Shown: positions 35,680-56,279, numbered from the stretch's first letter. The stretch is 64,000 nucleotides of DNA from Bacteroidota bacterium (GCA_947476185.1 CANJPX010000010.1:574-64573), one strand, 5' to 3'. Made by a program: numbers and translations. The notes: generated by a model not told the origin, from the letters alone.

Positions 35680-35994
35680 ATGCATACGCAGTTAAAAAAA
35701 TATTTTTCAATCCTATTCCTTTTCCTACTGTTATTTCCAATAATAGAAAAAGGATTACACTCCTATGAGCATCAGAAAGATCTTCATTGCACCGCGACAG
35801 AAAAACATTTTCACGACCTTGAACACGCTTGTTCCATTTGCGATTTTACGACCACAGACTCTAATAACTCACCGGAATCGGGCGTACAATTTATTATTAG
35901 CGCTAAAGAATTTTCCTTTTTTCCGTTTACTCAACAATTAAAAATTCCATACCCGTATTCTAATCTTCCTTCACGGGCACCTCCTGTAGCTTAG
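35680..35994 (+). CDS. hypothetical small membrane-anchored His/Cys-rich protein
   Basis: 104 aa. N-terminal hydrophobic segment then HSYEHQKDLHCTATEKHFHDLEHACSICDF. No family recognised. Coding status uncertain. Confidence 0.3.
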   Translation: MHTQLKKYFSILFLFLLLFPIIEKGLHSYEHQKDLHCTATEKHFHDLEHACSICDFTTTDSNNSPESGVQFIISAKEFSFFPFTQQLKIPYPYSNLPSRAPPVA

Positions 35995-36081
35995 TTTTTT
36001 TTAAATAATTCTTTTTGTTGATTTCTGTCCATGACAAGGGATCAATAATTAATATTTGCATTTTGAAAACTAAGTGATCTT

Positions 36082-37224
36082 ATGAAAAAAAATTTATTGC
36101 TTGCATTGATGCTTTTTGCAAGGCAACTATTCGCACAAACAGATAGTTTAAATTCTGACTCATTGCTGCTTCTGCAGATCCAGAACGACATGAAGGAAGC
36201 TGCTGCTCCACCAACAATTCAACAACGAATTGCGGCTTCCGCAAATCCTGATATAAGCGCAATTGGCGATTTTAGGGGATATTACAGAAGTTATGGCAAA
36301 CATAATTTTGATGCTGCACTTCACGAAACCGAATTCTCTTTTCAATCTGTGGTCGATCCATATGCCCGTGCCGATTTCTTTTATTCTGTTGCCGAAGATG
36401 AAAAAACAGGGGAATTTTCAGGTGAGATCGAAGAAGGATATTTGACAACTCTATCTCTGCCGGGGCATTTACAATTAAAAGCAGGAAGATTCAAAGAACA
36501 AATGGGGCGCATAAATCCTGTTCATGCGCATGCACTTCCATTCATTGATATGCCCGATGCGTATGTAAATTTTTTCGGAGAAGATGGATTCAAAGGAGAT
36601 GGTCTTTCCTTAAGTTGGTTATTACCGAATCATTCATTTTTCCAGGAACTAACTGTGGAAGCAACTAATGTAAGCGAGGGTCCGAGTTTTGAAAGAAGTG
36701 CCGGAAATAATTATTTATACAATGCACATCTAAAAAATTTCTGGGACCTTACGGATAATGCAACTTTGGAATTAGGCTTGTCAGGAATGACAGGAGAAAA
36801 TCTGATGAAAAAAATCACCAATATCGGAGCGATCGATCTTACCTATAAATGGAAACCTATCCGTTATAACACCTATAAATCTGTCACATTTCAGAATGAG
36901 TTGTATTATAGTCAGGCAGCACTCGACAGCTCAACAGTTAACGCAATTGGATTTTACTCTTTGCTGAATGTGCAAATTGCAAAACGAAGTTTCCTTGCAG
37001 GAAGATTTGATTATTCAAACAATCCTTACTCAGCAAAATTTGTGCAAGAGTCAGGCTCTTTAACGCTAGGATTTCTGGCAACAGAATTTCAAAAAATTGA
37101 GATAGAAGGGAAATACACAACGATGAATACGGCACTTGCAGAAAATGACAATCAGAAAAAATTTGTCTCAGCATATCTGAGATGGATCTTCGTCATTGGA
37201 TCTCATGGAGCACATACTTATTAA
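36082..37224 (+). CDS. hypothetical secreted outer-membrane (porin-like) beta-rich protein upstream of znuA
   Basis: 380 aa. Signal peptide (..LFAQ). Alternating amphipathic beta-strand pattern with aromatic girdles. No specific family recognised. Confidence 0.4.
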   Translation: MKKNLLLALMLFARQLFAQTDSLNSDSLLLLQIQNDMKEAAAPPTIQQRIAASANPDISAIGDFRGYYRSYGKHNFDAALHETEFSFQSVVDPYARADFFYSVAEDEKTGEFSGEIEEGYLTTLSLPGHLQLKAGRFKEQMGRINPVHAHALPFIDMPDAYVNFFGEDGFKGDGLSLSWLLPNHSFFQELTVEATNVSEGPSFERSAGNNYLYNAHLKNFWDLTDNATLELGLSGMTGENLMKKITNIGAIDLTYKWKPIRYNTYKSVTFQNELYYSQAALDSSTVNAIGFYSLLNVQIAKRSFLAGRFDYSNNPYSAKFVQESGSLTLGFLATEFQKIEIEGKYTTMNTALAENDNQKKFVSAYLRWIFVIGSHGAHTY

Positions 37225-37258
37225 AAAAATAAAAACAATTTTAAAAAAACAAAAAAAA

Positions 37259-38209
37259 ATGAAATCAATTATTAAAAAATACCTGAACTTTAAAAATAAA
37301 GTAAAGCGTAATTCAAAGATCATTACCTCTATATGTATCCTATTTTCAATTAATTCGGCCATTGCGGGTACGATTCATGTTGTCACTACAACACAGGATA
37401 CCAAAAGCATTGCAGAAATAATTGGAGGAACGAAAGTGGATCTTTTTGCCATCGCAACAGGTTATCAGAATCCGCATTTTGTGGATCCAAAACCAAGTTA
37501 TATCATCAAACTTTCGAATGCTGATCTGTATGTAACACTTGGTCTTGATCTGGAAGCAGGATGGTCACCATCGTTGCTGACAAGTTCTAAAAATAAAAAA
37601 ATCCAAAAAGGCAGTGATGGTTATGTTGATGCTTCTGTTGGCGTAAATCTGATGCAAGTACCTTCTTCCATAAATCGTGCGGAAGGTGATATCCATGTAT
37701 TTGGAAACCCTCATTATTGGCTCGATCCATTGAATGGAAAAATTATTGCAAGAAATATTTGTAATGGACTTGAAAAAATATCTCCTGAGAATAAAGATTA
37801 TTTCGAAGCGAATCTAAAAACATTTGACGCACAGATAGATGCAAAAATAAAAGTGTGGACCGCTGCAATGGAGGGGTTTAAAGGAGCGAAAATAATCGCA
37901 TATCACAATGAATGGTGTTACTTCGAAAACCGTTTCGGTTTAAAGATCGTTGATTTTATGGAACCAAAACCGGGCATTCCTCCCTCACCATCACAACTGG
38001 TGAAGATCATAAAAGAGGTAAAAGAAAATAGCATCAAAGTGATCATTACATCGCCTTACTTTACAACCTCTTCATCTGATGTTGTTTCAAAACAGACCGG
38101 TTCAAAAACTGTGGTGTTGGCAACTTCTGTCGGAGCTTTTGATGGAATAAAAAACTATTTCGACTTGTTCGACTACAACATAAAACTATTAAGCGCATCA
38201 CTAAAATAA
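37259..38209 (+). CDS. metal ABC transporter substrate-binding protein (ZnuA/TroA cluster-9 family)
   Basis: About 316 aa from the MKSIIKK start. Signal peptide. Typical cluster A-I SBP organisation (..AEGDIHVFGNPHYWLDP.., ..KIIAYHNEWCYF..). Confidence 0.75.
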   Translation: MKSIIKKYLNFKNKVKRNSKIITSICILFSINSAIAGTIHVVTTTQDTKSIAEIIGGTKVDLFAIATGYQNPHFVDPKPSYIIKLSNADLYVTLGLDLEAGWSPSLLTSSKNKKIQKGSDGYVDASVGVNLMQVPSSINRAEGDIHVFGNPHYWLDPLNGKIIARNICNGLEKISPENKDYFEANLKTFDAQIDAKIKVWTAAMEGFKGAKIIAYHNEWCYFENRFGLKIVDFMEPKPGIPPSPSQLVKIIKEVKENSIKVIITSPYFTTSSSDVVSKQTGSKTVVLATSVGAFDGIKNYFDLFDYNIKLLSASLK

Positions 38210-38251
38210 TCAATACAAATTTTTATTTATTAATTTCTAATTCTATTTATT

Positions 38252-39100
38252 ATGTTCGACATGTTTCAATTGGATTTTATGCTTCTTGCATTTGTGATAA
38301 GCATTATAATAGGTATCTTACTGTCTTATCTTGGCGTGCATGTAGTGGGAAGAGGAATTGTTTTTGTGGATCTTGCACTCGGTCAGATCTCCTCACTTGG
38401 CGTTGCATTTTCTGATTATGTAGGTTATGGCAAAACGATCATCCCGATATTATTTGCTTTGTTCGGAGCATTGCTGATGTCGCTCATCAACATTAAAGAC
38501 AAGCGGCTGAAGCTTGAAGCAGTAATTGGAATTATTTATGCTGTTTCATCTGCAGTAACAGTAATGTTAATCTCCAAAACCCCACATGGTGATTCGGACA
38601 TTCAAGAGGTACTTTTTGGAAATATCCTTTCTATTGATTGGACACAAATAACGATCATCGGAAGTATTTTCGGAGCAATTGCCTTGTTTCATCTTATCTT
38701 TTACAAGAAGTTCTTTTTATTGACCGAATGTTTTGAAACAGAAAACAGCCAACTGGGACAAACAGTCTTTAAGAAAAAAGGCGAATTCAGTTTCTGGAAT
38801 TTCATGTTCTATTTATCAATCGGATTAGCAATTGTATTTGCGGTGAGGGTGAGCGGAGTAATTCCGGTTTTTGCCTTTCTGATAATTCCGGCAGTTGCAT
38901 CGATCATGCTTTTCAAAAATAATCTTGGTCTTGTAATTTCTTCTATACTGATAAGTATCATAGGTGCATTTTTCGGATTGAACGTTTCCTATCATTTTGA
39001 TTTCCCTGCTGGCTCATCATTAGTAGCAGTATTAGGGGGTATTTTCTTCATGATCTCCTTGTTCTATATATTCAAAAGCATGATGAAAAAGAAAAACTGA
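38252..39100 (+). CDS. metal ABC transporter permease (ZnuB/ABC-3 family)
   Basis: 282 aa with 8-9 TM segments, ABC-3 type. Directly follows the SBP gene. No ATPase gene adjacent. Confidence 0.75.
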   Translation: MFDMFQLDFMLLAFVISIIIGILLSYLGVHVVGRGIVFVDLALGQISSLGVAFSDYVGYGKTIIPILFALFGALLMSLINIKDKRLKLEAVIGIIYAVSSAVTVMLISKTPHGDSDIQEVLFGNILSIDWTQITIIGSIFGAIALFHLIFYKKFFLLTECFETENSQLGQTVFKKKGEFSFWNFMFYLSIGLAIVFAVRVSGVIPVFAFLIIPAVASIMLFKNNLGLVISSILISIIGAFFGLNVSYHFDFPAGSSLVAVLGGIFFMISLFYIFKSMMKKKN

Positions 39101-39216
39101 ATTCTAACCGATCATCAAATAAGGAGTATGTGAATAAGTTTCAAATTCGGATACAAATGTTTCAATTTGGCTTTTTCAATAATTAAATATACATTTGTTA
39201 GTATAAAAGTTTAAAA

Positions 39217-39606
39217 TTGAAAAAGTCACTGATCTTATTTTTGACATTCATTTACCTGGTTGTAGCATCAGGCGTGGCTTTTAATTTCCATTACTGCCGA
39301 GGTAAGATCAGCAGCATCTCTCTTGCATTTGTCAGCAACCACGATAATTGTTGTGGAAAAAAGAAAATGACAAAGAAAAACTGTTGTAAAAACAAAACCT
39401 CAGTTTTAAAAATAAACGACAATCAACATTCTTCAACAAATATCAAAGCGCCTTCAACAATCATTACGGCTATTGACGCTAGTTTTACACAGATCAACTT
39501 CAGTGTTGCATCTATCATTGAAGCGAAAACCATTTCAAGAATTCACGCCCCCCCTGATATTTATCAGGATTCGATATACCTGCAATATCGCGTATTGATC
39601 ATTTAG
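39217..39606 (+). CDS. hypothetical small Cys-rich membrane-anchored/secreted protein
   Basis: 129 aa. Hydrophobic N-terminus then HYCRGK..NHDNCCGKKKMTKKNCCKNK. No family recognised. Confidence 0.35.
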   Translation: MKKSLILFLTFIYLVVASGVAFNFHYCRGKISSISLAFVSNHDNCCGKKKMTKKNCCKNKTSVLKINDNQHSSTNIKAPSTIITAIDASFTQINFSVASIIEAKTISRIHAPPDIYQDSIYLQYRVLII

Positions 39607-39763
39607 AATTTTCCTTTTTGTCATTTCCATACTAATTTTCAGTAATGGGAATTTTATGCTTTTGCATATGCCTATGACAACAATTTCTGTATTTCTATTT
39701 CGGGAATAATTACAAACTTATTTTTACAATTTCAATATTTATTAATCATAAAATACAACGCTA

Positions 39764-39997
39764 ATGAAAACTAAAATCATTCTATCAAGTTTCGTACTTT
39801 CAACAATAATTATTTTTTCTTGTAACGGTGAAGCAAAGAAAGATGCCACCGCAACTGAAAATGCGAGTCAGCCTGTAGCAGCTTTTGCTTATACCTGTCC
39901 GATGCATCCTGATGTAAAAAGCGATAAACCGGCACAATGCCCTGATTGTGGAATGGATCTGGAAAAAGTAGAAAAGACAGATAGTATCAGCCATTAG
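39764..39997 (+). CDS. small lipoprotein consisting of a heavy-metal-binding domain (HMBD; YxCPMHP...CPxCGMxL motif)
   Basis: 77 aa. Lipobox ..IIFSC. Motif AYTCPMHPDVKSDKPAQCPDCGMDLEKV matches the HMBD found at N-termini of CusB-like and other metal efflux proteins. Confidence 0.65.
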   Translation: MKTKIILSSFVLSTIIIFSCNGEAKKDATATENASQPVAAFAYTCPMHPDVKSDKPAQCPDCGMDLEKVEKTDSISH

Positions 39998-40099
39998 ATC
40001 CTATAAAATAAATTGTTTTTATGATTCGTCAAATAAAATATTTTAATCATGTTATATAGATTACTATTTTTTCTTCTTCCATTAGGATATCTATTTTCA

Positions 40100-40107
40100 C
40101 CCCCCCC
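40100..40107. repeat. poly-C homopolymer (8 C) at the junction between a signal-peptide ORF and a cytochrome c domain ORF
   Basis: Direct reading of ttttcaCCCCCCCCactt. Frames 40049..40234 and 40150..40470 differ by one position. Confidence 0.9.
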
Positions 40108-40149
40108 ACTTACTTTGCTAAGAGGTTTGAAAAAGAACAGAAAGATACC

Positions 40150-40470
40150 TTGGTTACAATTTCACCAATTGAAAAAATTAAAAAAGGAAAATTATTATTT
40201 GAACAAAACTGTTTGTTGTGTCACGGTGCTTTAGGAAAAGGAGATGGATATGCCGGCATTTATCTAAATCCAAGACCCTTTGACATCAGTTCCGAAAAGG
40301 TACAAATACAAAGTGATTCCACCCTTTTTTTTAAAATCACTCTTGGAAAAGCACCTATGCCAACTTTCAAAGCACTGCCTTTTGAATCAAGATTATATCT
40401 ATTAATGTATGTCAGAGAACTTGGGAAAAATAATAATAAACAGACCGCTAAAAATGATTCGAAGAACTAA
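40150..40470 (+). CDS. class I c-type cytochrome domain (CxxCH); apparently frameshifted from its signal peptide at the poly-C tract
   Basis: ..KLLFEQNCLLCHGALGKGDGYAGIYLNPRPFD.. heme-binding CLLCH. As it stands the ORF starts at a TTG with no export signal. The upstream frame-2 ORF (40049..) encodes MLYRLLFFLLPLGYLFSPPP. Confidence 0.6.
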   Translation: MVTISPIEKIKKGKLLFEQNCLLCHGALGKGDGYAGIYLNPRPFDISSEKVQIQSDSTLFFKITLGKAPMPTFKALPFESRLYLLMYVRELGKNNNKQTAKNDSKN

Positions 40471-41674
40471 CTACTGCATATGGATAATTATTTTTTCTTT
40501 TTTAATAGTTGAAAAAGGAGAAGCAATAAATAATGACACCATTTCAAAAAAAGAAAACTTTAAATTCTCCCGAATTGTATTTTCCGGAAACGGTTATTGT
40601 GGAGTCGATGTACATTTAAATAAGTCTCTAAAAGACAGTACGGGAATGGAATCTACATCCCTTCCAATTGGTTTGGCTCCAATCATATTATGGAAGCTCA
40701 CACCTCAGTTATTTATTGAAAGTGAATTCGATTTTATGATGGATCATGGAATGTTAAGTGGAGAAATTGGATATGCAAATTTATGCTACTCCACGAATAA
40801 ATTGGGCACGATACAAATAGGAAAATTTCTTAGTCCGTTCGGAATTTATTCAGAACGCTATCACCCATTTTGGATAAATAATGCTCCAAATACACCGTTG
40901 GGATTCGCACATGAAGGATCTTCACCTGAATCAGAGTTAGGTGTTTGTTATAAAGTAGGTTCCAAACATTTTACATATGCTATGTATGCATCTTTGAGTC
41001 CAAAAATAGATGGAGGGAGTGAAAATGTAAAAAATGCAGGTAAAATTATTTTCCACATTGATCTGAGAGAAAAGTTCAATAAAAAAATTGGTTTGGGCGC
41101 TCGAGTAGGAATTTTGCCATTTAAAAACCCTTCTATAGAACTGGGACTTTCCTATAAATGGATGCAATTGGAAGTTGGCGAACATTACGATGGAACAGCG
41201 GTCACACACACGCATCCATCTGGCGAGCAATCAAAATATTACATTGGGAATATGTATGCTGTTGATCTTACGATTGAAAAAATCCTTGCCCGATTGAAAG
41301 GTAAGATTGATATAAAAGCACAAGTAAATTACACAGATGTTGGAACTAATAATTTTATAAAAACTAGTCCAAGTGGAATTACTGAAATTGATTATTCTTA
41401 TTCAAATAAGAGTGAAATTGGATTTGCAATGCTATCCTTTAAACCAATATTAGTTGACAATTACATCCTAAAAAGATCAGGAATATTTGTACGTGGAGGG
41501 ACCTTACAATTGCCTATTGGTTCTTTATGGTACGAGACAACCTATGAAATCACAGCTGGATTAAATTATTCATTTAATTGGCAAAATATCCTGAAAATAG
41601 GATACCAGCAGATTTCAACTGCAAAAAAAGGTTATACAAATAATATATTGTTACAATGGGCTGTAGGTTTTTAA
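40454..41674 (+). CDS. hypothetical outer-membrane beta-barrel protein
   Basis: About 406 aa from MIRRTNYCIWIIIFSFLIV. Amphipathic beta-strand pattern. C-terminal ..LLQWAVGF ends in Phe (OM barrel signature). Confidence 0.45.
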   Translation: MIRRTNYCIWIIIFSFLIVEKGEAINNDTISKKENFKFSRIVFSGNGYCGVDVHLNKSLKDSTGMESTSLPIGLAPIILWKLTPQLFIESEFDFMMDHGMLSGEIGYANLCYSTNKLGTIQIGKFLSPFGIYSERYHPFWINNAPNTPLGFAHEGSSPESELGVCYKVGSKHFTYAMYASLSPKIDGGSENVKNAGKIIFHIDLREKFNKKIGLGARVGILPFKNPSIELGLSYKWMQLEVGEHYDGTAVTHTHPSGEQSKYYIGNMYAVDLTIEKILARLKGKIDIKAQVNYTDVGTNNFIKTSPSGITEIDYSYSNKSEIGFAMLSFKPILVDNYILKRSGIFVRGGTLQLPIGSLWYETTYEITAGLNYSFNWQNILKIGYQQISTAKKGYTNNILLQWAVGF

Positions 41675-41688
41675 ATAGAAAATTCGTA

Positions 41689-41940
41689 ATGCTAACAATT
41701 TGCTTTGCGCTTGCATTTATTATTCATAGTTGCAAAACAAAAAATGAGCTAATAATAGAAAAAAGCGGAGCTCAACTTTGGGGAGAAAATTGTGGCCGCT
41801 GTCATAACACACCTGACCCAACAACATATACAGATGAAAAATGGGAAACTGTTGCCATGCATATGAAAGTCAGGGCAAATATATCTTCCAAAGAAATCGT
41901 TTTGATCAAGGAATTTTTGAAATCAGCAAATGGCGATTAA
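41689..41940 (+). CDS. small lipoprotein with a single CxxCH heme-binding motif
   Basis: 83 aa from MLTICFALAFIIHSC (lipobox). ..LWGENCGRCHNTPDP.. Ends 11 nt before the TonB-dependent receptor gene. Confidence 0.55.
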   Translation: MLTICFALAFIIHSCKTKNELIIEKSGAQLWGENCGRCHNTPDPTTYTDEKWETVAMHMKVRANISSKEIVLIKEFLKSANGD

Positions 41941-41950
41941 AAATTAAATA

Positions 41951-44185
41951 ATGAAAAAACTATATTATAAATATATCATCCTTCTTGGAATCCTGTTCAT
42001 TACTATTCTGAGCACAAATGCTCAAAATATTGCAGGAACTGTATTTGGAATAAATGATAAAGGGTTAAATGAAATTCTTCCAGGTGCAAATGTATATTGG
42101 AAAGGAACATCCATTGGCACTTCAACAGATATTAATGGCAAATTTCAAGTTCCAAACCCTGAAGCGGTTCCCTCCAAATTAATTATCAGCATGATTGGTT
42201 TTATGAGCGACACAATGACAATTGAAAAACCAGATCAATTGAATATAAAAGTTGTATTAAAAAGCAGCATCACATTAAAAACTGTCAATATTGAAGCGAA
42301 ACAAAATTCCACAATGTATTCAACTTTTAACCCAATCAATTCTGAAGTAATTAGTGGAAAGGAATTACTTAAAGCTGCCTGCTGCAACCTTTCGGAAAGT
42401 TTCAGCACGAATGCCTCTGTTGATGTCGCATTTACCGATGCAGTCTCTGGAGCAAAAAAAATTCAAATGCTTGGACTTGATGGTGTGTATACACAAGTGT
42501 TATCTGAGAATATGCCGATGTTAAGAGGATTGTCAGCGGCTTACGGTTTAAATTATATTCCAGGCACATGGATTGACAACATCTTAGTTACCAAAGGAAC
42601 AGGATCTGTAGTGAATGGATATGAAAGTATATCAGGACAAATCAATCTTGAGTTTTTAAAACCACAAAATCAAAAAAAACGTTTGTTTATTAATTTGTAT
42701 GCAAATGAAAAAGGGCGGGATGAAATAAATGTCCATTTGGCAAAAAAATTTAATACAAAATGGACAACACTTCTATTTACCCATTTGAGTGATATGAGCA
42801 TGAAGAATGATGCTAATAAAGATGGATTTTTAGATATGCCCTTAACTCGTCAATACAATATTTTTAACCGATGGGATTATCATAATCAGAAAAATTTCGA
42901 ACAGCAGTTTGGAATAAAAGCACTTTATGAAATGCGTCAAGGAGGACAAACAAATTTCAATTACAACAGAGATCATGATAGCACAAGTGCTTATGGTATA
43001 GGTATCAATACTACTGCTTTAGAATATTTTTCAAAAACAGGATTCATGTTTCCATCAAGACCTTTAAAGAGCGTTGGTATTCAAACTTCAGGAAAATGGC
43101 AACAACAAGAAATGTATTTTGGTATAAGAAAATACAATGGAGAACAAAAGAATTTTTATACAAATATCATTTATGCAAACTTCATCAACAATACAGATCA
43201 CAAATATAAATTGGGTGCAAGCTATATGTTAGATGATTATTCAGAAAAGTACAACGACTCATCTTTTACCAGAACAGAAAGTGTTCCCGGAGTATTTGCC
43301 GAATATACTTATACACACCCTGATAATTTTTCTATCGTTATCGGCGGCCGCGCAGATTACCATAACATGTATGGAATACAATATACACCACGTTTGCATT
43401 TACGTTTCAATGCAACAAAAACAACTACTTTTAGGCTATCAGGAGGCAGAGGCTTCAGAACATCAAACATTTTTGTGGAAAACCAATCTGTATTCGCAAG
43501 TTCAAGAAAGGTCGTAATCGCAGAAAAGCTTAAGCCTGAAATTGCTTGGAACTATGGCGTTTCGGCTAATCAAAAATTTACTTTATTCGATAATGAAGCT
43601 TCTGTAAATGTTGATTTTTTCAGAACCGATTTTCAGAATCAAGTAATCGTTGATATTGATCAAAGCGTAAACAAAGTGGTGTTTTATAATTTAAATGGAA
43701 GATCTTATTCCAATAGTTTGCAAATTGATTGTGGTTATTCTCCCATAAAAATGTTTGACATAAAGGTTGCCTATAAATGGTACGATGTTAAAACAACATA
43801 TAATTATGAATTACTCGACAAGCCCTATATTCCAAAGCATCGCGTGATGTTCAATATGGCATATTCAACATATATGGATATTTGGAAATTTGATTTTACA
43901 ACAAATTGGCTAGGAGAAAGCAGATTGCCAAGTACAGAATTATCTCCTATTGAATATAAATTACCAAAACATTCAAACCCTTACTTTTTACTAAATGCGC
44001 AGATTACAAAAAAATTTAAAACATTTGAACTTTACTTGGGTTGCGAAAACATTTTGAATTACACGCAGAGAAATCCAATCATTGCCTCAGAAAACCCATT
44101 TGGCAGCAACTTCGATGCTTCAATGATCTATGCACCTATTGAAGGTCGAAATATTTATGGGGGATTCAGAATGAGTATCAAATAA
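41951..44185 (+). CDS. TonB-dependent outer-membrane receptor with N-terminal carboxypeptidase-regulatory-like domain
   Basis: 744 aa. Signal peptide, CarbopepD_reg-like start (..NIAGTVFGINDKGLNEILPGANVYW..), plug, 22-strand barrel length. Contains a CC pair (..LLKAACCNLSESF..). Confidence 0.85.
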   Translation: MKKLYYKYIILLGILFITILSTNAQNIAGTVFGINDKGLNEILPGANVYWKGTSIGTSTDINGKFQVPNPEAVPSKLIISMIGFMSDTMTIEKPDQLNIKVVLKSSITLKTVNIEAKQNSTMYSTFNPINSEVISGKELLKAACCNLSESFSTNASVDVAFTDAVSGAKKIQMLGLDGVYTQVLSENMPMLRGLSAAYGLNYIPGTWIDNILVTKGTGSVVNGYESISGQINLEFLKPQNQKKRLFINLYANEKGRDEINVHLAKKFNTKWTTLLFTHLSDMSMKNDANKDGFLDMPLTRQYNIFNRWDYHNQKNFEQQFGIKALYEMRQGGQTNFNYNRDHDSTSAYGIGINTTALEYFSKTGFMFPSRPLKSVGIQTSGKWQQQEMYFGIRKYNGEQKNFYTNIIYANFINNTDHKYKLGASYMLDDYSEKYNDSSFTRTESVPGVFAEYTYTHPDNFSIVIGGRADYHNMYGIQYTPRLHLRFNATKTTTFRLSGGRGFRTSNIFVENQSVFASSRKVVIAEKLKPEIAWNYGVSANQKFTLFDNEASVNVDFFRTDFQNQVIVDIDQSVNKVVFYNLNGRSYSNSLQIDCGYSPIKMFDIKVAYKWYDVKTTYNYELLDKPYIPKHRVMFNMAYSTYMDIWKFDFTTNWLGESRLPSTELSPIEYKLPKHSNPYFLLNAQITKKFKTFELYLGCENILNYTQRNPIIASENPFGSNFDASMIYAPIEGRNIYGGFRMSIK

Positions 44186-44220
44186 TAATAAACACAATTA
44201 AAAATCAAAAACTAAAAAAA

Positions 44221-44580
44221 ATGAAAAGAAAACTATTTACGGGAATCATAGCCGTGCTTTTGCTATTTTCTTCAAACGTAAAAGCACAAGATTTAAAAAG
44301 TGCGGAAATAAAAATTAAGACTTCTGCAACTTGCGACATGTGCAAAAAAACAATAGAAAGTGCTCTCGCATTCGAAAAAGGCGTAAAAAAATCAACGTTG
44401 GATGTACCTACAAAAATAGTTACAGTTGTATACAACCCAAAGAAAACAACGCCAGAAAAAATTCGACTGGCAATTTCCAATGCAGGATATGAAGCTGACA
44501 GCTTAAAAGCTAATCCTAAAGCATGGAGCAACTTAGAGGATTGTTGCAAAAAAGGCACCACTTGTGAAGAAAAAAAATAA
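44221..44580 (+). CDS. periplasmic heavy-metal-associated (HMA) domain protein (copper-chaperone-like)
   Basis: 119 aa. Signal peptide. HMA fold with metal-binding ..TSATCDMCKKTIESAL.. (CxxC). C-terminal ..EDCCKKGTTCEEKK Cys cluster. Confidence 0.75.
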   Translation: MKRKLFTGIIAVLLLFSSNVKAQDLKSAEIKIKTSATCDMCKKTIESALAFEKGVKKSTLDVPTKIVTVVYNPKKTTPEKIRLAISNAGYEADSLKANPKAWSNLEDCCKKGTTCEEKK

Positions 44581-44785: not shown

Positions 44786-45559
44786 ATGAAAAAAATAATA
44801 CTAATCACTCTTGCCGGCATTATCTCTAGTTTTGGCTTTGCACAAACGACAGCAACAGACTTCACAGTAAATGATTGTTCCGGAACTTCACATCATCTTT
44901 TCGCTGAATTGGATGCAGGTAAAGTTATTGTAATTGCTTTTGTAATGCCATGCACTTCTTGTATCGCACCATCTGTTTCTGCTTATTCGGAAGTACAAAA
45001 CTATGCAAGCACTTATCCTGGACGTGTTTTATTTTATTTATCCGATGACCTGGGAACTGCTACCTGTTCATCAATAACAAACTGGGGAACAACAAATGGA
45101 ATAACCGGAGTTCCAGTGTTTTGCAATACCGCTGTCAAACAAGCAGATTATGGTGCAGCAGCAATGCCTAAAATTGTAGTTTTAGGTGGTCCTACTCATA
45201 CTGTTCTTTTTTCGCAAGACAATGGATTGAATGTAACAAATTTCAATGCTGCTATTAATTTAGGATTAGTTGCAGGCATCTTTGAAAATTCAAAATCCGA
45301 CTTCGAATTGTCAGTTTTCCCTAATCCTTCAAAGACAGATAAAACCACTATAAACTACACTCTGAAAGAAGGTTCTGATGTCACCGTTGACATTTATAAT
45401 ACAATTGGTGAAAAAGTTAAGACCATCGCGCTTGAAAAGCAAGCTGCAGGAAAACACGAATCAATATTAGATTTTGAATCATTGACCAATGGAATTTATT
45501 TCATAAAGTTGAATGCGGGAGAATCATCTCAAGTACTCAAATTCAGTGTTTCACATTAA
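44786..45559 (+). CDS. thioredoxin-fold (TlpA/redoxin-like, CxxC) protein with T9SS type A C-terminal sorting domain
   Basis: 257 aa. Signal peptide. ..GKVIVIAFVMPCTSCIAPS.. redoxin-type active site. C-terminal ..LSVFPNPSKTDKTTINYTL..GIYFIKLNAG.. T9SS C-terminal domain. Confidence 0.65.
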   Translation: MKKIILITLAGIISSFGFAQTTATDFTVNDCSGTSHHLFAELDAGKVIVIAFVMPCTSCIAPSVSAYSEVQNYASTYPGRVLFYLSDDLGTATCSSITNWGTTNGITGVPVFCNTAVKQADYGAAAMPKIVVLGGPTHTVLFSQDNGLNVTNFNAAINLGLVAGIFENSKSDFELSVFPNPSKTDKTTINYTLKEGSDVTVDIYNTIGEKVKTIALEKQAAGKHESILDFESLTNGIYFIKLNAGESSQVLKFSVSH

Positions 45560-45584
45560 GATTTTATTTTGATTGTTATTTTAC

Positions 45585-45626
45585 AACCTGATATTATCTT
45601 TTAATAATATCAGGTTGTTTTTTTTA
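45585..45626 (+). terminator. rho-independent terminator after the first thioredoxin-T9SS gene
   Basis: Perfect hairpin AACCTGATATTAT-CTTTTA-ATAATATCAGGTT followed by GTTTTTTTTAATT. Confidence 0.7.
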
Positions 45627-45646: not shown

Positions 45647-46756
45647 ATGCGTTCTCTTATTTTTATTGCAACGACAATTCTATTCGCAAATAATATTTAT
45701 TCGCAAGGATGTTGTTCAGGTGGCAGTGGCAGTCCAATTGCAGGAGGAGCTTCACAGGGAGTCCTTCAAGACAGACAGGTTGAAGTTGCAGCAAATTATC
45801 AATACATCAACACGAATAAATTTAAATCCGGTGACAAAGATACGGCAGCTTTATTCGATGGATTCACAAGTAACTACATGTATCTTCGATTAGCATATGG
45901 CCTGACAAAAAACCTGACCATGTCTGTTGAATCAGGATATTATTTAAATAAAACACAAATCGGATTAAACAGAGTCGATACATTTAGTTCAGCCGGAATT
46001 GGCGACCTGATTTTATTTCCAAGATATGATGTATTAAACAGAACATCAGAAAAAAAACGCACAGAAATCACCTTGGGTATCGGACTAAAAATTCCATTAG
46101 GCATGTATGACGACTCAACTCTTTTTTACACAAACCCATATACAAGAAAACAGCTTTTCAGACCGTCACCTCCTTCAGTACAACCCTCTACAGGAGCGAA
46201 TGATTTTATTTTTTACGGCTTCTTTTACAGAGGTTATCCTGAAAAAAAATTCAGAGTATTCATGAATACATTATACGTTCGCAAAGGCTGGAGTCCAATT
46301 GGAGCGAAATTCGGGGATTACGCAAGTGTCGGTTTATTTGCCGGTCAAACCTTCTTTAAAAAATTAGGAGTTACCATACAGGTAAAAGGAGAATGGATCG
46401 GAAAAATGAAAGCCAGCCAAAATGCAGATGATATGATGAATATGTATAATGTGGATATCGTTTCAACAGGCAGCCGAAAAATATTATTTGTGCCTCAGCT
46501 TAGTTATAGCTATAACAGCTTCTCTATTTATGCCTTGACAGAAATTCCGCTTTACCAATATGTCAACAAAGTACAAGTAGCATCGCAAGTTCAGGCAACT
46601 GTGGGGATTTCATATCGATTTAATGCGTATAAAAAAATAGCCGTTAAAAGTGATTCGCAAAGTCTTTATGTTTGTCCGATGGGCTGTGTTGGAAGCGAAA
46701 GCAATGAACCTGGAAAATGCAAAGAATGCGGAATGGAATTAATAAAAAGAAAATAA
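45647..46756 (+). CDS. outer-membrane beta-barrel protein with N-terminal Cys-rich stretch and C-terminal heavy-metal-binding domain (HMBD) extension
   Basis: 369 aa. Signal peptide then QGCCSGGSGSP. Barrel body ending ..VGISYRF. C-terminal tail ..YVCPMGCVGSESNEPGKCKECGMELIKRK is the same YxCPM...CxxCGMxL motif as the 39764 lipoprotein. Confidence 0.55.
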   Translation: MRSLIFIATTILFANNIYSQGCCSGGSGSPIAGGASQGVLQDRQVEVAANYQYINTNKFKSGDKDTAALFDGFTSNYMYLRLAYGLTKNLTMSVESGYYLNKTQIGLNRVDTFSSAGIGDLILFPRYDVLNRTSEKKRTEITLGIGLKIPLGMYDDSTLFYTNPYTRKQLFRPSPPSVQPSTGANDFIFYGFFYRGYPEKKFRVFMNTLYVRKGWSPIGAKFGDYASVGLFAGQTFFKKLGVTIQVKGEWIGKMKASQNADDMMNMYNVDIVSTGSRKILFVPQLSYSYNSFSIYALTEIPLYQYVNKVQVASQVQATVGISYRFNAYKKIAVKSDSQSLYVCPMGCVGSESNEPGKCKECGMELIKRK

Positions 46757-46767
46757 AAAATAATCGA

Positions 46768-47544
46768 ATGAAAAAATTATTGACACTTATTTCTGTATTC
46801 TTATTTGTTTCAGTGTCTTTATACGGGCAAACAGCAATTGACTGGACCAAACTAGATTGTTCAGGAATCAGCCATAATCTTTATACGTATTTAAATAATG
46901 AGGATGTTGTAATTATGGAATTTGCTATGGGTTGTAGCAGTTGTACCAATGCCGGAGCACGACTACTTAGTATAAAAGACAAATATGCAATTTCTAATCC
47001 TGGGAAAGTAAACGTATTCTATATGGATTACTGGCCTGGAAATACCTGTGCAACTGTTGTTTTACCTACAACTACGCCTTATGCCTTTGATGCTGTATTT
47101 GATCATTCACTTGCAGAAAAAGATAATTATTTTGCTAGCTCCTCTCCAATGCCCGGTATTGCAATTGCTGCGGGAAGTTCACATCAGATAATTTATCAGG
47201 TAAATAGTTTTGTTGATGCTGATACTACATTAATTGAACAAGCAATCACTGCATTTTTCGCAACAGCAAACATTAAAGAAAACCTTTTCGAAAATACAAT
47301 AACACTTTCTCCAAATCCCTCCACTGGAGATGTAATAATTAATTTTACAAATACAGAAACAGAAAACATTAATATTTCACTTTTTAATTTAAATGGTCAA
47401 TTGATTAAAGGACTCTTTAATGAGAAAGTATCAGTTGGAGATTTCAAAAAAATAATTGATATCCGATCCTATCCTAAAGGCTTATATTACATTAACATTT
47501 CCAATTCAAAATACTCAATTAACAAAAAGATAGTTGTAAATTAA
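46768..47544 (+). CDS. thioredoxin-fold (CxxC) protein with T9SS type A C-terminal sorting domain, paralogue of 44786..45559
   Basis: Signal peptide MKKLLTLISVFLFVSVSLYGQ. ..DVVIMEFAMGCSSCTNAG.. C-terminal ..TLSPNPSTGDVIINF..GLYYINIS.. T9SS C-terminal domain. Collinear similarity with the 44786 protein (..DCSG.SH.L...L.....V.I..F.M.C.SC..). Confidence 0.65.
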   Translation: MKKLLTLISVFLFVSVSLYGQTAIDWTKLDCSGISHNLYTYLNNEDVVIMEFAMGCSSCTNAGARLLSIKDKYAISNPGKVNVFYMDYWPGNTCATVVLPTTTPYAFDAVFDHSLAEKDNYFASSSPMPGIAIAAGSSHQIIYQVNSFVDADTTLIEQAITAFFATANIKENLFENTITLSPNPSTGDVIINFTNTETENINISLFNLNGQLIKGLFNEKVSVGDFKKIIDIRSYPKGLYYINISNSKYSINKKIVVN

Positions 47545-47580
47545 GTCCCTTATCAGATTTCTTCTGATTATGTTGTACAT

Positions 47581-47970
47581 TTGTTTCATAACGAAATACT
47601 ATTGAAATCATTTATTGCACTATTAATTGCTTTTGCCATTATTTTCCAATCAGCCGGAAAGCTAATTATTATTGTGCATTACTCCTTAAACAAAGAATAC
47701 ATTTCAAAAAACTTATGTGAAAACAGAGCAAAGCCAAAAATGCATTGCAACGGTAAATGTCATTTAAAAAAGGAATTACAAAAAGAAGACAAGAAAGATA
47801 ATTCTCCATCAAATAATTTAAAAGAAAAGTATGAAGTACAATTTTTCGAAAAATTTAAAAAAATAATAAATATCCTGCCTTTCAGCGAAAGAGAAAAAGC
47901 TACAACAACTTATTTGTTTCCATTCTCATCTGAGGACCTGAGCGCCATATTTCACCCACCACAATCATAA
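47581..47970 (+). CDS. hypothetical small membrane-anchored Cys/His-rich protein
   Basis: 129 aa. N-terminal TM segment then ..HYSLNKEYISKNLCENRAKPKMHCNGKCHLKK... Loosely similar layout to the 39217 protein. Confidence 0.3.
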   Translation: MFHNEILLKSFIALLIAFAIIFQSAGKLIIIVHYSLNKEYISKNLCENRAKPKMHCNGKCHLKKELQKEDKKDNSPSNNLKEKYEVQFFEKFKKIINILPFSEREKATTTYLFPFSSEDLSAIFHPPQS

Positions 47971-48165
47971 TTAACGATAAAATTTAATTTTCCGTGTTGC
48001 CTTTTTGCAGATGGCATAAACTATTAACATTTCTGTTGATGGATGTTTTTTTACATGCAATTATTTGGTTACGGGAAAAAGTTCACATTTTTAGAACTAC
48101 TTTTTAGAAAAACAAATCAATTATCGATTTGTTATATTTTTATTTATCTAATAATTATAAATATT

Positions 48166-48954
48166 ATGAAACCACATAAAATATTTTTCGCATTTTTTTT
48201 ATCAGTTACACTTCTTGCTTCATCTTGTAAAAAAGACAAAGATGAAGAAACGCCAACACCTTCAGTTCCCGCTGCCACATCTGGAAGCCTGGCACTTCAT
48301 TTTGAAAATATGGTGGGAGATAGTGCCTTGGTAATGAATACCGAATCATATGTAACTGCAAACAATGATACAATTACTGTTTCTGCATTTAAATATTATA
48401 TCAGCAACATTGTATTAACTAAAAGCGGTGGAGGAACATATGTTGAAAATGAGAGTTACCATTTAATTGATGCTTCTGACTTATTAACCGGTGAATTTAC
48501 TCTTCCAAATGTTCCTTTCGGGGATTACACAGGAATTACATTTATGATCGGTGTTGACAGTACACGGAATGTTTCAGGTGCACAAACCGGAGCATTAGAT
48601 CCTGTAAATGGAATGTACATGGGAATGGGTGCAGGTTATATCCAAGCAACCTTGGAAGGATTATCTCCACAGTCAACATCTGGAGGGCACATGTTCATGT
48701 ACCAAGTTGCTGGATTCCAAGGAATATACAACCCTCTTAAAACTATTTCTCCAACTTTTTCAGGTGGTATCGCCACTGTCACATCAAGTGTTATTCCAGA
48801 AATTCACTTCAAAACGAATTTATTAGAATGGTTCACAACGCCTAACAACATTAGCATTTCCGCTGTGAGTATGGTAATGTCTGTTAACTCAACAAGTCTA
48901 AATTTCGCTGACAACTATGCAGACATGATAAGCGTTGAACACATACACAATTAA
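48166..48954 (+). CDS. lipoprotein, possibly MbnP-like (copper-associated periplasmic protein family)
   Basis: From MKPHKIFFAFFLSVTLLASSC (lipobox). ..FKYYISNIVLTKSGGGTYVENESYHLIDAS.. and C-terminal ..NFADNYADMISVEHIHN resemble what I recall of Bacteroidota MbnP-family proteins. Tentative. Confidence 0.4.
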   Translation: MKPHKIFFAFFLSVTLLASSCKKDKDEETPTPSVPAATSGSLALHFENMVGDSALVMNTESYVTANNDTITVSAFKYYISNIVLTKSGGGTYVENESYHLIDASDLLTGEFTLPNVPFGDYTGITFMIGVDSTRNVSGAQTGALDPVNGMYMGMGAGYIQATLEGLSPQSTSGGHMFMYQVAGFQGIYNPLKTISPTFSGGIATVTSSVIPEIHFKTNLLEWFTTPNNISISAVSMVMSVNSTSLNFADNYADMISVEHIHN

Positions 48955-48961
48955 TAAATAT

Positions 48962-49021
48962 AGTATCATATAGTCGCTTCGTGGATCTTTCTATTACGGC
49001 TATATGATACTTTTATAATTT
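48962..49021 (+). terminator. rho-independent terminator after the MbnP-like gene
   Basis: 15-bp inverted repeat AGTATCATATAGTCG / CGGCTATATGATACT (1 mismatch) followed by TTTTATAATTT. Confidence 0.5.
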
Positions 49022-49161
49022 CTAAAAGGAGTCAATTGCAATTTGATAATCTGACTAATAATTTATAGGCATAAAAAATATTTTTATAAGAAAAAAACTA
49101 ACAAAAGAAATATCATTTTATATCAAGAAAAGAACCTTAACTTTAACTTAAATTAAAAAAA

Positions 49162-49545
49162 ATGAAACATTCATTTAGGTATTTAGCAATTCTTTATTTC
49201 GTTACTTTAATTGCAATGACTATCACGTCATGTAAAAAAGAAGGAACCGGTGGAAAATCTAGTGTAAGTGGAAGTGTAAAGCACCATTCCAGACTTATTC
49301 CCAACGCTATTGTTTACATAAAATATGGTGCAACAGAATTTCCGGGAACAGATATTAGTAAGTATGATGACCACGTAACTTCGGATGCGGATGCACATTA
49401 TGAATTCAAAGACCTGCGCAAAGGTGATTATTATTTGTATGGAGCTGGATACGACACGTATGGCCTTTTTAATGTTACCGGAGGCGTTGGTATAAAATTA
49501 AAATACAACAAGTCAATTACCATAGATGTTCCGGTAACGGAGTAA
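49162..49545 (+). CDS. hypothetical lipoprotein with beta-sandwich (carboxypeptidase-regulatory/transthyretin-like) features
   Basis: 127 aa. Lipobox ..MTITSC. ..GSVKHHSRLIPNAIVYIKYG.. pattern. Confidence 0.4.
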   Translation: MKHSFRYLAILYFVTLIAMTITSCKKEGTGGKSSVSGSVKHHSRLIPNAIVYIKYGATEFPGTDISKYDDHVTSDADAHYEFKDLRKGDYYLYGAGYDTYGLFNVTGGVGIKLKYNKSITIDVPVTE

Positions 49546-49645
49546 AAAAATTTGAAGCTCAAATCGATTTGACATCACGTTTTATTTTTTAAAGAACTAC
49601 GATTAACGAAAAACTTAACCATTCCGATTTTTATTATTTATTAAA

Positions 49646-51106
49646 ATGAAGCGTAAACAAAAAATACTATTTTTTATTCCATTAACAATTTTTATTGTTT
49701 GCTTCTTAACGACATGCACCAACGATAAAGGAATACCTGATTACAATCAATTTCCTGATGATGTCGGAAAAATAATTTTCACTAAATGTGCTACGCCCGG
49801 CTGTCACACAGATATAAGCAAAGGTGCAACAGGAGGTCTTTCACTGGAAAGTTGGGATAAAATGTTTGATGGAGGGAAAACCAGTGCCTGTGTTATCCCC
49901 TACAGAAATGACTACAGCACATTTTTTTCCTATATAAATACATATTCAGATCTAGGTGTAACACTTTTACCGGTTATGCCATACAATAAAAATCCTTTAA
50001 CGCGTGAGGAAGTTATACTATTAGGAAACTGGATCAATGCAGGGGCGCCCAGCAGAGATGGCACTATAAAATTTGCAGACGATCCTAATCGTAAAAAGTT
50101 TTATGTCACAAACCAAGGTTGTGATGTTGTAACTGTGTTTGATCAAAAAACACAATTACCAATGCGTTACATCAATGTAGGAAACTCCGCAGCTACGGAA
50201 TCTCCGCATGACATAAAAGTTTCACCTGATGGACAATATTGGTATGTTGTATTTTTACAAGGAAATTCAATCCAAAAATATAAAACGAGTGATGACACTT
50301 TTGTGGGTGAAGCTTTTTTAGGTGTAAAGAGTTGGAATTCTTTTACGATGACAAGTGATGGTTCTAAGGCCTATGTGGTTGACTGGAGCAGCAGTGGCGA
50401 TGTTGCAGTGGTAGACCTTAACACATTTGCTGTAACACATAATATTGGTTTTAATTATCCACATGGTTCTTGTCTTAATCCAACAGAAGATACTTTATAT
50501 GTAACGGAACAAAACAATAGCAGCAAAATGTATAAAGTTCCCGTAAATGATTTTTCTGCATTCTCAGAAATAAATTTATTTACAACACCGCCTCCCTCTT
50601 TTCTGAATTCACATCTTGTAGACTTTTCCCCTGATGGAACAGAATATTTTGTGACTTGTCAAGGAACATCAGAAGTCAGAGTTTTTCAACAAGGAACAGA
50701 TCAATTATTAGCGACAATACCGGTTGGAGGACTTCCTTCTGAAATGGCAATTTCAGATCTTCACAATTATTTATTTGTTACCTGTGAAGAGGATACACTT
50801 TCCTTTCCAGGCAAAAGAGGAAGCATCGCTGTAATCGACATTGCAAGTAATTCATTAATAAAAACAATTTATTCGGGCCATCAACCGCATGGAATTGATG
50901 TTGACGATGAAAAAAATCTGGTTTATATCGCCAACAGAAATAAAACGAATGATGGCCCGGCACCTCATCACACAAGCGTTTGCGGCGGCAGGAATGGGTA
51001 TGTTACTTTTATTGATATGAATAGTTTAGAATTGATTCAAGCGGGTGCCGGCGCAAAAAAAACCGAGGTTTCCGTGGATCCATATGAAGTAGCTGTCCGT
51101 CACTGA
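49646..51106 (+). CDS. lipoprotein with N-terminal mono-heme cytochrome c domain fused to a YVTN-type beta-propeller (cd1-like architecture)
   Basis: 486 aa. Lipobox ..FLTTC. ..IIFTKCATPGCHTD.. (CxxCH) and ..LTREEVILLGNWINAGAP cytochrome c C-terminal helix. Repeated propeller blades (FYVTNQG, AYVVDWSS, LYVTEQNN, YFVTCQG, LFVTCEED, VYIANRN). Confidence 0.7.
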   Translation: MKRKQKILFFIPLTIFIVCFLTTCTNDKGIPDYNQFPDDVGKIIFTKCATPGCHTDISKGATGGLSLESWDKMFDGGKTSACVIPYRNDYSTFFSYINTYSDLGVTLLPVMPYNKNPLTREEVILLGNWINAGAPSRDGTIKFADDPNRKKFYVTNQGCDVVTVFDQKTQLPMRYINVGNSAATESPHDIKVSPDGQYWYVVFLQGNSIQKYKTSDDTFVGEAFLGVKSWNSFTMTSDGSKAYVVDWSSSGDVAVVDLNTFAVTHNIGFNYPHGSCLNPTEDTLYVTEQNNSSKMYKVPVNDFSAFSEINLFTTPPPSFLNSHLVDFSPDGTEYFVTCQGTSEVRVFQQGTDQLLATIPVGGLPSEMAISDLHNYLFVTCEEDTLSFPGKRGSIAVIDIASNSLIKTIYSGHQPHGIDVDDEKNLVYIANRNKTNDGPAPHHTSVCGGRNGYVTFIDMNSLELIQAGAGAKKTEVSVDPYEVAVRH

Positions 51107-51519
51107 TGTCTCCATTACCCGAAAATAGCAACATTATACTTTTTGATGGCATCTGTAATCTCTGCAATTCATATGTCAATAAAACTATCAAGCTCGACAA
51201 AAAAAATAAATTTAAATTTGCTACACTTCAATCAGAAGTTGGAAAAAAAATATTACGTGAATGCTTGATTGACCCTTCAGTAACTGACAGCATTATTTTA
51301 TTTGAAAACAAAACTGCCTATTCAAAATCAACGGCCGTACTTAAGATTGCAAAACTCATTGGCGGACTTTATTCATTAGCCTTCGCTTTTATTATTATCC
51401 CACCATTCATTCGAAATGCTGTTTACGATTTCATTGCAAAAAACAGGTATAAATGGTTTGGAAAAAAGGAAACATGTATGGTTCCTACAGAAGAAATAAA
51501 GTCAAAATTTATTTCTTAA
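51106..51519 (+). CDS. thiol-disulfide oxidoreductase, DCC family (DUF393)
   Basis: 137 aa. ..IILFDGICNLCNSYVN.. is the DCC-family DGxCxLC signature. Its ATG overlaps the upstream TGA (TGATG), suggesting translational coupling. Confidence 0.75.
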   Translation: MSPLPENSNIILFDGICNLCNSYVNKTIKLDKKNKFKFATLQSEVGKKILRECLIDPSVTDSIILFENKTAYSKSTAVLKIAKLIGGLYSLAFAFIIIPPFIRNAVYDFIAKNRYKWFGKKETCMVPTEEIKSKFIS

Positions 51520-51988: not shown

Positions 51989-52008
51989 TAAAATAAAATT
52001 AATTAATA

Positions 52009-52944: not shown

Positions 52945-53155
52945 ATTTTTTTTGATTTTTAGGTTATCGAAATTTTCGAGGGCTAATTTAGAAAAGAAAA
53001 ACATATTCAACTATGTTTTTTTGAACAGTTTTAGCAATTTAATAGCATTTTTAAAAAAATCACTTTTTTGATGCAACTTAAATTTAACTTTTTGCATCTG
53101 CCTGAAAGGCAGATTATAATATTTGCATTATATTAGTAGCGATAAAACTTTCTTT

Positions 53156-55789: not shown

Positions 55790-55814
55790 GAAACATTTTT
55801 TATAAAAAAATCCT

Positions 55815-56234: not shown

Positions 56235-56279
56235 TATTTAATGATACTCAAACTGAAACGAATAAAAACGCTCCCTTGC

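Follow-up and report, generated by a model that had tools for sequence, protein, structure and literature searches.

In a stretch of 64,000 nucleotides from a Bacteroidota bacterium (GCA_947476185.1 CANJPX010000010.1:574-64573; the whole stretch is referred to as the window) we analyzed four adjacent genes, which encode an outer-membrane barrel (gene 1), a small, putative c-type cytochrome lipoprotein (gene 2), a TonB-dependent receptor (gene 3) and a periplasmic protein with an HMA domain (gene 4). The first-pass annotation of this DNA had described them as one compact operon. All four open reading frames (ORFs) were found where it had placed them, on the + strand and separated by 14, 10 and 35 nt, but as a unit the four genes did not hold together: two modules meet at this position, and a HYC_CC_PP gene and a third gene of the cytochrome cassette had been overlooked. 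Module A consists of the HYC_CC_PP protein, the receptor and the HMA protein; module B is a trio of a cytochrome c, the barrel and the mini-cytochrome. From the genes present, the way in which both modules are conserved and syntenic across genomes, the modelled folds, conserved heme motifs and cysteines, natural gene fusions and the metal-gene context we infer, with a probability of roughly 0.45, that a thiophilic metal, most likely copper, would be imported by TonB energy via a cysteine relay to which an outer-membrane redox module has been added.

Judged by its sequence, the receptor is a member of a very large and strongly conserved Bacteroidota family with at least 8000 homologs, the best 120 of which are 66-80% identical to it. 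It matched the Pfam models CarbopepD_reg_2 (E 7.7e-16), Plug (PF07715, E 1.7e-7) and TonB-dependent barrel (PF00593, E 9.7e-25), and has the Plug domain followed by a 22-strand beta-barrel that characterizes a TonB-dependent transporter. The two neighboring cysteines already noticed in the plug region, C144-C145, are located inside the Plug match and are invariant in 56/56 aligned homologs. They belong to the plug motif of the family, KAACCN.SESF (KAACCNLSESFSTNASVDV), which is invariant, and 73 of 74 receptor ORFs, with identities down to about 40%, retain the pair. In the AlphaFold2 (AF2) model the barrel reached a predicted local distance difference test (pLDDT) score of ~80, and the N-terminal domain was also well modelled. 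A candidate TonB box strand (TLKTVNIEAKQ, residues 107-117) was picked by eye in a region with a pLDDT below 50. A Foldseek search returned generic transporters, Cir, BtuB and others (E 1e-21 to 1e-17); no close solved relative was found, and the PDB sequence search gave CirA only, and weakly. The earlier statement that this is neither a Hmu nor a Sus architecture was borne out: the SusC/RagA model TIGR04056 scored 43.9 bits against a cutoff of 368.25 and matched the N-terminal domain alone, and neither a SusD-like nor an HmuY gene is present among the receptor neighbors.

Synteny was compared in 80 receptor loci from named genomes, with receptors 40-97% identical to the one in the window. An HMA gene adjoins the receptor in 66 of these loci; it mostly follows at a distance of ~60 nt and in occasional cases immediately precedes the receptor. 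Of the 14 loci in which it is missing, eight are on contigs that stop at the receptor, and the pairing rises to 66/72 once these are excluded. Clustering of the neighboring ORFs revealed in addition a HYC-like protein of ~134 aa. In 71 of the 77 loci with enough flank, its gene immediately precedes the receptor gene in the same orientation and ends ~100 nt before it. As far as sequence and gene order can tell, HYC_CC_PP, receptor and HMA protein form one conserved module that is widespread in Bacteroidota. The barrel and the mini-cytochrome are found beside the receptor in four of the 80 loci only (L017, L026, L027 and L031; tblastn and hidden Markov model searches agree). The co-occurrence check proposed with the first-pass annotation therefore had a divided outcome, with the HMA partner retained and the heme partner and barrel missing in 76/80. 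The same holds for the proposed metal uptake with redox and hand-off partners: the hand-off partner and the metal-gene surroundings speak for it, whereas a heme partner is no general feature of the receptor. As a putative redox partner in the loci that possess it, the mini-cytochrome is nevertheless plausible.

Gene 4 has a signal peptide and an HMA domain (PF00403, E 1.4e-12, 48.3 bits with a cutoff of 24.8). Both cysteine clusters attributed to it are present: C38xxC41 is 97-98% and the C-terminal pair C108-C109 94-95% conserved, and the third cysteine of the latter cluster, C115, just 37%. Its best NCBIfam matches are the CopZ, MerP and MerTP models, all below their cutoffs (39.2 bits against 91 for CopZ and 34.8 against 92.55 for MerP), and there is no match at the equivalog level. 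The HYC_CC_PP protein passes the NCBIfam model NF047658 with 56.8 bits (cutoff 28). Its N-terminal segment is hydrophobic, and HYC, two CC pairs and PP come after it; C27 (97%), C45 (92%), C46 (78%) and the pair CC56-57 (100%) are conserved to different degrees. Thus, the receptor, the HMA protein and HYC_CC_PP all bear vicinal or paired cysteines. HYC-like genes are also the first genes of Cus-type operons for resistance-nodulation-division (RND) pumps and HMBD proteins (L107, L138 and L143, also L091 and L110), which independently connects the HYC family, and via it the receptor module, with systems of the copper/silver type. Members of the family seem to be a general part of soft-metal operons in Bacteroidota; a literature search found no paper on the function of HYC_CC_PP, although an NCBIfam model exists.

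Genes 1 and 2 belong, by sequence comparison, to a separate, free-standing trio. It comprises a cytochrome c of ~140 aa (Cytochrome_CBB3 type), a protein of ~390-406 aa without a Pfam match and a mini-cytochrome of ~90 aa. All five sampled contexts of the mini-cytochrome showed this same trio and no TonB receptor, and in 91 of 91 independent trio loci the receptor family was absent even at E < 1e-3. The barrel gene is located directly upstream of the mini-cytochrome in 45 of the 48 loci with room for it, and 37 of 40 trio loci have a CxxCH ORF upstream of the barrel. The cytochrome c at 40049-40470 of the window, which matched Cytochrome_CBB3 (E 1.1e-5) and Cytochrom_C (E 5.7e-5), is therefore taken as the third member of the cassette. 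Each cytochrome of the cassette has one CxxCH. The combination of a porin with two monoheme cytochromes occurs in hundreds of clusters from Bacteroidota and Marinimicrobia.

The assignment of gene 1 as an outer-membrane barrel was confirmed by modelling: the AF2 model (pLDDT 85.8) has 16 strands, the C-terminus is a beta-signal (...QWAVGF), and we consider the predicted barrel real. Gene 1 did not match Porin_O_P (PF07396), for which weak matches were obtained just in the distant relatives P0271 and P0267; in the model the likeness to OprP is at the level of the fold only. According to the usual topology of porins, the conserved motif GKFLSPFG..ERYHPFWIN would be located in the constriction loop L3, and the His-rich segment GEHYDGTAVTHTHPSGE (window 41180-41230, gene 1 residues ~243-259, with low model confidence) in the extracellular loop L5. 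This His-rich loop occurs in variable form in most close homologs and is possibly a metal-binding site at the surface. A profile search of every representative protein identified relatives of gene 1 in 953 clusters; a word-indexed search gave merely 10, which reflects the limited sensitivity of that search and not a real rarity. Among the best 149 representatives, 16 are 491-639 aa long and have a single N-terminal CxxCH, and Pfam analysis of six of them revealed in each case a Cytochrome_CBB3 domain fused to the barrel. The signature of the fused domain, CxxCHG..GKGDG, is the same as in the window cytochrome. These natural fusions argue that the upstream cytochrome and the porin are functionally linked.

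Gene 2 contains, as had been recognized, a single CGRCH. The cysteine after the signal peptide (IIHSC), C35, C38, H39, H58 and M59 are invariant in its family of more than 334 homolog clusters, as is the core KSGAQLWGENCxRCHN. The protein stays below the cutoff of the Cytochrome_CBB3 model PF13442 (17.9 bits, cutoff 27), with CxxCH and H58-M59 invariant.

In all four receptor loci that carry the cassette, it is placed between the HYC-like gene and the receptor, and this insertion point is shared despite barrels that are 52-58% and receptors that are ~70% identical. In the window the genes from 39217 to 44580 are packed on one strand. The tight packing begins upstream of gene 1, with HYC_CC_PP (39217), a small HMBD protein (39764) that has counterparts in L031, L065 and L017, and the cytochrome c ORF, which overlaps the start of gene 1; the spacers in the coupled stretch are 10-35 nt. 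The sequence TAnnTTTG, which we take to be the -7 promoter element of Bacteroidota, is found repeatedly in other loci, 10-25 nt before HYC-like genes, and there is no match to it on the + strand between 39243 and 44661. As it is not enriched in the window (95 matches, 91 expected), its distribution lends weak support to a single transcription unit; a sigma-70 scan of the window was uninformative for Bacteroidota. A composite operon probably runs from HYC_CC_PP (39217) to the end of the HMA gene (44580). We read this as a unit of six or seven genes, formed when an importer operon took up the accessory redox cassette in a single small sub-lineage.

The closest relative of the window, L031 (JAPLDC010000190.1), is a metagenome-assembled genome (MAG) from the water column of Lac Pavin, with 97% identity over the receptor and 96-100% over the cassette. 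In RIFCSPLOWO2_12_FULL_35_15 (MEPB01000077.1, L065/L110) the trio and the receptor module are present on one contig, ~12 kb apart and not interleaved.

The genes that recur near the trio in other genomes encode HMBD proteins, small His-rich proteins, an RND pump, TolC-like, HYC-like, DUF302 and SHOCT proteins, together with an HMA-AraC regulator and Crp-type regulators. In single loci a multicopper oxidase, YHS proteins or a P-type ATPase that combines YHS and HMBD domains (L085) are encoded as well. An HMBD protein was found near the trio in 8 of the 37 loci with enough context and in 2 of 62 loci of a comparison set (Fisher p = 0.005); for any metal marker (HMBD, HMA or HYC) the counts were 12/37 and 9/62 (p = 0.04). 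Judged by this company, the link of the trio to soft-metal homeostasis is real but partial.

The four-gene set is embedded in a soft-metal island of Bacteroidota of ~16 kb. Profile scans of the window proteins revealed an unbroken run of + strand genes from ~35.7 to 51.5 kb, mostly of metal-related families. The features are listed in the following table.

Table. Positions and assignments of the features in the metal-related gene run of the window.
Feature	Position	Strand	Basis or remark
His/Cys-rich 104-aa protein, 380-aa barrel candidate, ZnuA-type binding protein, ABC-3 permease (upstream part of the island)	35680..39100	+	
Candidate Bacteroidota -7 promoter element TACATTTG	39190..39197	+	27 nt 5' of the HYC_CC_PP start codon
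HYC_CC_PP family protein, 129 aa; first gene of the receptor module	39217..39606	+	NF047658
Small HMBD protein, 77 aa, YTCPMHPD...CPDCGM, probably a lipoprotein	39764..39997	+	PF19335 E 2.5e-13
Class I cytochrome c (CLLCH), frameshifted; first gene of the porin-cytochrome trio	40049..40470	+	Pfam
Gene 1, predicted 16-strand OprP-like outer-membrane porin, 406 aa	40454..41674	+	
Gene 2, putative mini-cytochrome c lipoprotein, 83 aa, CGRCH, HM	41689..41940	+	
Gene 3, TonB-dependent receptor, 744 aa	41951..44185	+	Pfam
Gene 4, secreted (periplasmic) HMA protein, 119 aa	44221..44580	+	PF00403
T9SS-sorted surface protein, 257 aa, PCTSC (CxxC)	44786..45559	+	Por_Secre_tail E 5.9e-13
Terminator-like hairpin, 15-bp stem, then T run	45583..45618	+	strong; behind the gene that comes next after gene 4
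Outer-membrane barrel candidate, 369 aa, N-terminal GCCSGGSGSP, C-terminal HMBD	45647..46756	+	HMBD E 5e-7
Second T9SS CxxC protein, 129-aa protein, MbnP, 127-aa protein (downstream part of the island)	46768..51519	+	
Cytochrome c + beta-propeller protein (486 aa), DCC1-like thiol-disulfide oxidoreductase	within 46768..51519	+	

No gene for an ATP-binding cassette (ABC) ATPase is visible in the run 35680-39100 beside the ZnuA-type protein and the ABC-3 permease, and the 380-aa barrel candidate that precedes them matched no family. Paralogy of the three barrel candidates of the island (36082, 40454 and 45647) was not supported by BLASTP, which gave no similarity among them, and the small Cys/His-rich proteins at 35680 and 47581 were considered as members of the HYC family, for which no support was obtained. 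The two surface proteins sorted by the type IX secretion system (T9SS) each have a CxxC in an N-terminal domain without a Pfam match, PCTSC in the first and GCSSC in the second (46768-47544). The first of them and the barrel candidate that ends in HMBD occur as a pair, which is found near HMA genes in L017, L050, L053 and L107 and follows the HMA gene in L050 and L053; it may represent a metal-capture pair at the surface. MbnP, in the stretch 48166-51519, was identified with E 1.1e-46 and no di-heme peroxidase of the MbnH type adjoins it. It is followed by the 127-aa protein, the 486-aa cytochrome c with a YncE/NHL-like beta-propeller and the DCC1-like oxidoreductase, in this order. Past ~52 kb the GC content of the window changes from ~0.33 to 0.46. 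This part encodes a repetitive surface protein of 888 aa (53123-55789) and a giant ORF that exceeds 2586 codons and abounds in Thr, Ala and Gly repeats; it starts at ~56241 and continues past the window end. Short minus-strand ORFs within 52000-64000 are probably antisense frames of this giant ORF.

In the mechanism that we propose, a thiophilic metal would cross the outer membrane via the receptor at the expense of TonB energy; copper in the form of Cu(I) is the most likely candidate. The cysteine sites among which the metal would then be passed are the invariant plug pair, the two motifs of the HMA protein (CxxC and the C-terminal CC) and the CC pairs in HYC_CC_PP, and this relay would resemble the hand-off from the CxxC of MerP to the CC of MerT. 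Module B would act as a minimal porin-cytochrome unit of the outer membrane, with the logic of Cyc2 split over three genes. Inserted between HYC_CC_PP and the receptor, it could set the redox state of the metal, e.g. by reducing Cu(II) to Cu(I) before import. Copper is favored as the cargo because HYC, HMA and HMBD genes are found beside Cus-type genes and because MbnP and other metal-related genes are part of the island. A bolder version draws on an analogy with eukaryotes, where a surface reductase, a Cu(I) permease and a Cu(I) chaperone (Fre1, Ctr1 and Atx1) form a copper route. The trio would then be a minimal outer-membrane electron conduit acting on copper, a split and motif-distinct analogue of Cyc2, wired into a TonB importer with a cysteine relay as a bacterial counterpart of this route. 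We consider this version quite improbable.

Several observations weigh against import of copper with the help of the redox module. The cassette accompanies the receptor in so few loci that the importer does not need it, and one of them, L017, is without the ~140-aa cytochrome. In the window itself the upstream cytochrome c is frameshifted at a run of eight C residues (40100-40107), with its signal peptide in another frame. At this site L031 (97% identical) reads CCCCCCTCC and encodes an intact secreted cytochrome of 140 aa; the frameshift may reflect an error of the assembly, a pseudogene or else a variable tract. A metal marker is near only about a third of the trio loci. The receptor plug (residues 107-232) was modelled with a pLDDT of ~30 despite the alignment of 56 sequences, and the position of the CC pair is not readable from this model. 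Cysteine ligands would suit Zn, Cd or Hg as well, and the receptor module is also found in Bacteroidales MAGs (L059-L064 and L071-L078). The relatives in L017 and L065 sit beside efflux pumps, which is compatible with detoxification. No conserved palindrome was detected upstream of the HYC-like genes, and no regulator or operator was found; a shared operator at this position had been considered, and only the generic TAnnTTTG element turned up. The literature search found no paper on the receptor-HMA-HYC module or on the trio.

Three other explanations overlap with copper import and with each other and are not mutually exclusive. The cargo might be zinc, another thiophilic metal (Cd, Hg, Co or Ni), or a metal-thiol or metallophore complex instead of ionic copper. 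The Bacteroidales genomes fit this idea, as these are expected to be anaerobes with little demand for copper. The ZnuA/ABC-3 system of the island has its best matches to zinc models (AztC and ZnuA), the zinc receptor ZnuD is structurally as close to the receptor as OprC, and on gene 4 the MerP and MerTP models score nearly as high as CopZ, with MerP-type HMA domains binding Hg. But HYC-like, HMBD and HMA proteins are encoded together with systems of the copper/silver type, namely Cus-type RND pumps, a multicopper oxidase and P-type ATPases with YHS and HMBD domains, and MbnP in the island is a member of a copper-linked family. All-cysteine sites would also be unusual for zinc, since the zinc sites of uptake proteins tend to be rich in His, Asp and Glu. 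We regard a different cargo as rather unlikely. Use of the same genes for detoxification appears distinctly less probable still. In a copper-resistance island, Cu(I) in the periplasm or at the surface would be oxidized by the cytochromes to Cu(II), which is less toxic, and the metal would be buffered or routed to efflux pumps by the HMA and HYC proteins. Building blocks of this kind are indeed found beside CusCBA-type pumps with HMBD adaptors in L017, L065, L091, L107, L138 and L143, and L085 has the P-type ATPase mentioned above. The core of the module, however, is a TonB-dependent receptor, which points to import; to our knowledge such receptors are importers. Moreover, more than 60 of the 80 receptor loci have housekeeping neighbors and no efflux genes, and the island of the window contains uptake-type genes (ZnuA/ABC-3, MbnP) and neither an RND pump nor a P-type ATPase.

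The adjacency of the two modules could also be incidental, with the trio doing a separate redox job such as oxidation of Fe(II) in the manner of Cyc2, or redox chemistry of an anion at the OprP-like pore. Such a pore could favor anions, as OprP-type porins select them. The trio loci without a TonB receptor (91/91) and the receptor loci without the trio (76/80) are what independent modules would give. About two thirds of the trio loci lack a metal marker, Crp/FNR-type regulators and Usp proteins recur near the trio, and the origin of the closest relative in Lac Pavin is in line with this idea. Against this idea stand the identical insertion point in four diverged genomes, the tight spacing on one strand, the enrichment of HMBD proteins around the trio, the His-rich extracellular loop L5 of close homologs and the absence of the Cyc2 signature motif. 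On balance incidental adjacency is doubtful, and copper import via the cysteine relay remains the reading that we prefer.

The receptor family, large and conserved in Bacteroidota, is defined by the CC pair of the plug and by its fixed HMA and HYC_CC_PP partners, and has no known substrate. We know of no established route of copper across the outer membrane of Bacteroidota. If the receptor is a copper importer, its family would fill this gap, and would do so by a chemistry unlike that of OprC. The cassette would extend the idea of a small porin combined with one heme, as realized in Cyc2, beyond the known iron oxidizers and toward genes of metal homeostasis.

TonB-dependent metal uptake and porin-cytochrome modules are known as kinds of systems, and both modules described here are variants of them. 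The SusC/SusD and HmuR/HmuY systems of Bacteroidota likewise combine a TonB receptor that has a CarboxypepD_reg N-terminal domain with a small lipoprotein encoded nearby, but the small lipoprotein of the window is a putative c-type cytochrome and part of another module. OprC and NosA of Pseudomonas share with the receptor the location in the outer membrane, the TonB dependence, the 22-strand barrel with a plug and the proposed import of a soft metal with sulfur ligands. Their copper site is cited as CxxxM-HxM (PMC11213822). An OprC/NosA-like site of Cys, Met and His had been suggested for the receptor. This suggestion was not upheld: there is no C...M anywhere in the receptor, and both patterns occur anywhere in just 2 of 56 homologs. 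OprC is at rank 41 of the Foldseek results with 12% identity and is absent from the PDB sequence matches. A receptor of the OprC/NosA type was ruled out by the lack of this site and of any particular closeness in sequence or structure. The family differs from OprC further in its CarboxypepD_reg N-terminal domain, the vicinal CC of the plug and the dedicated HMA and HYC_CC_PP partners. The MerP-MerT relay and the CopZ chaperones resemble gene 4 in that a secreted CxxC protein of the HMA type is found beside partners with vicinal cysteines. Here, in contrast to MerP-MerT, the partner is a TonB receptor of the outer membrane and not MerT of the inner membrane, gene 4 has an additional conserved C-terminal CC pair, and no mer genes are present.

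The side-by-side arrangement of a periplasmic cytochrome, an outer-membrane barrel and a lipoprotein cytochrome is known from MtrCAB and from the OmaB-OmbB-OmcB (Pcc) complex of Geobacter. These are multiheme systems with barrels of 20-26 strands, whereas the cassette has one CxxCH per cytochrome and 16 strands. A closer comparison is Cyc2, the iron oxidase of Acidithiobacillus and Zetaproteobacteria, in which a monoheme cytochrome is fused to a 16-strand OprO/OprP-like barrel and the signature PXFAR[Q/K][T/Y] is located upstream of CXXCH (PMC8406198). The cassette has both kinds of parts, and the predicted barrel of gene 1 is of this 16-strand type. Membership of the Cyc2 family was ruled out by the missing signature, which is absent from all 149 barrel representatives, all 16 fusions and both window cytochromes. 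In addition, the parts are encoded by separate genes in the window, the second cytochrome is a lipoprotein, the cytochrome of the fused relatives is an ordinary class I domain of ~80 aa (Cytochrome_CBB3), and the genomic company consists of copper-type genes and not of genes for iron oxidation. Taken together, the sequence comparisons place the cassette on a Cyc2-like plan and outside the Cyc2 family.

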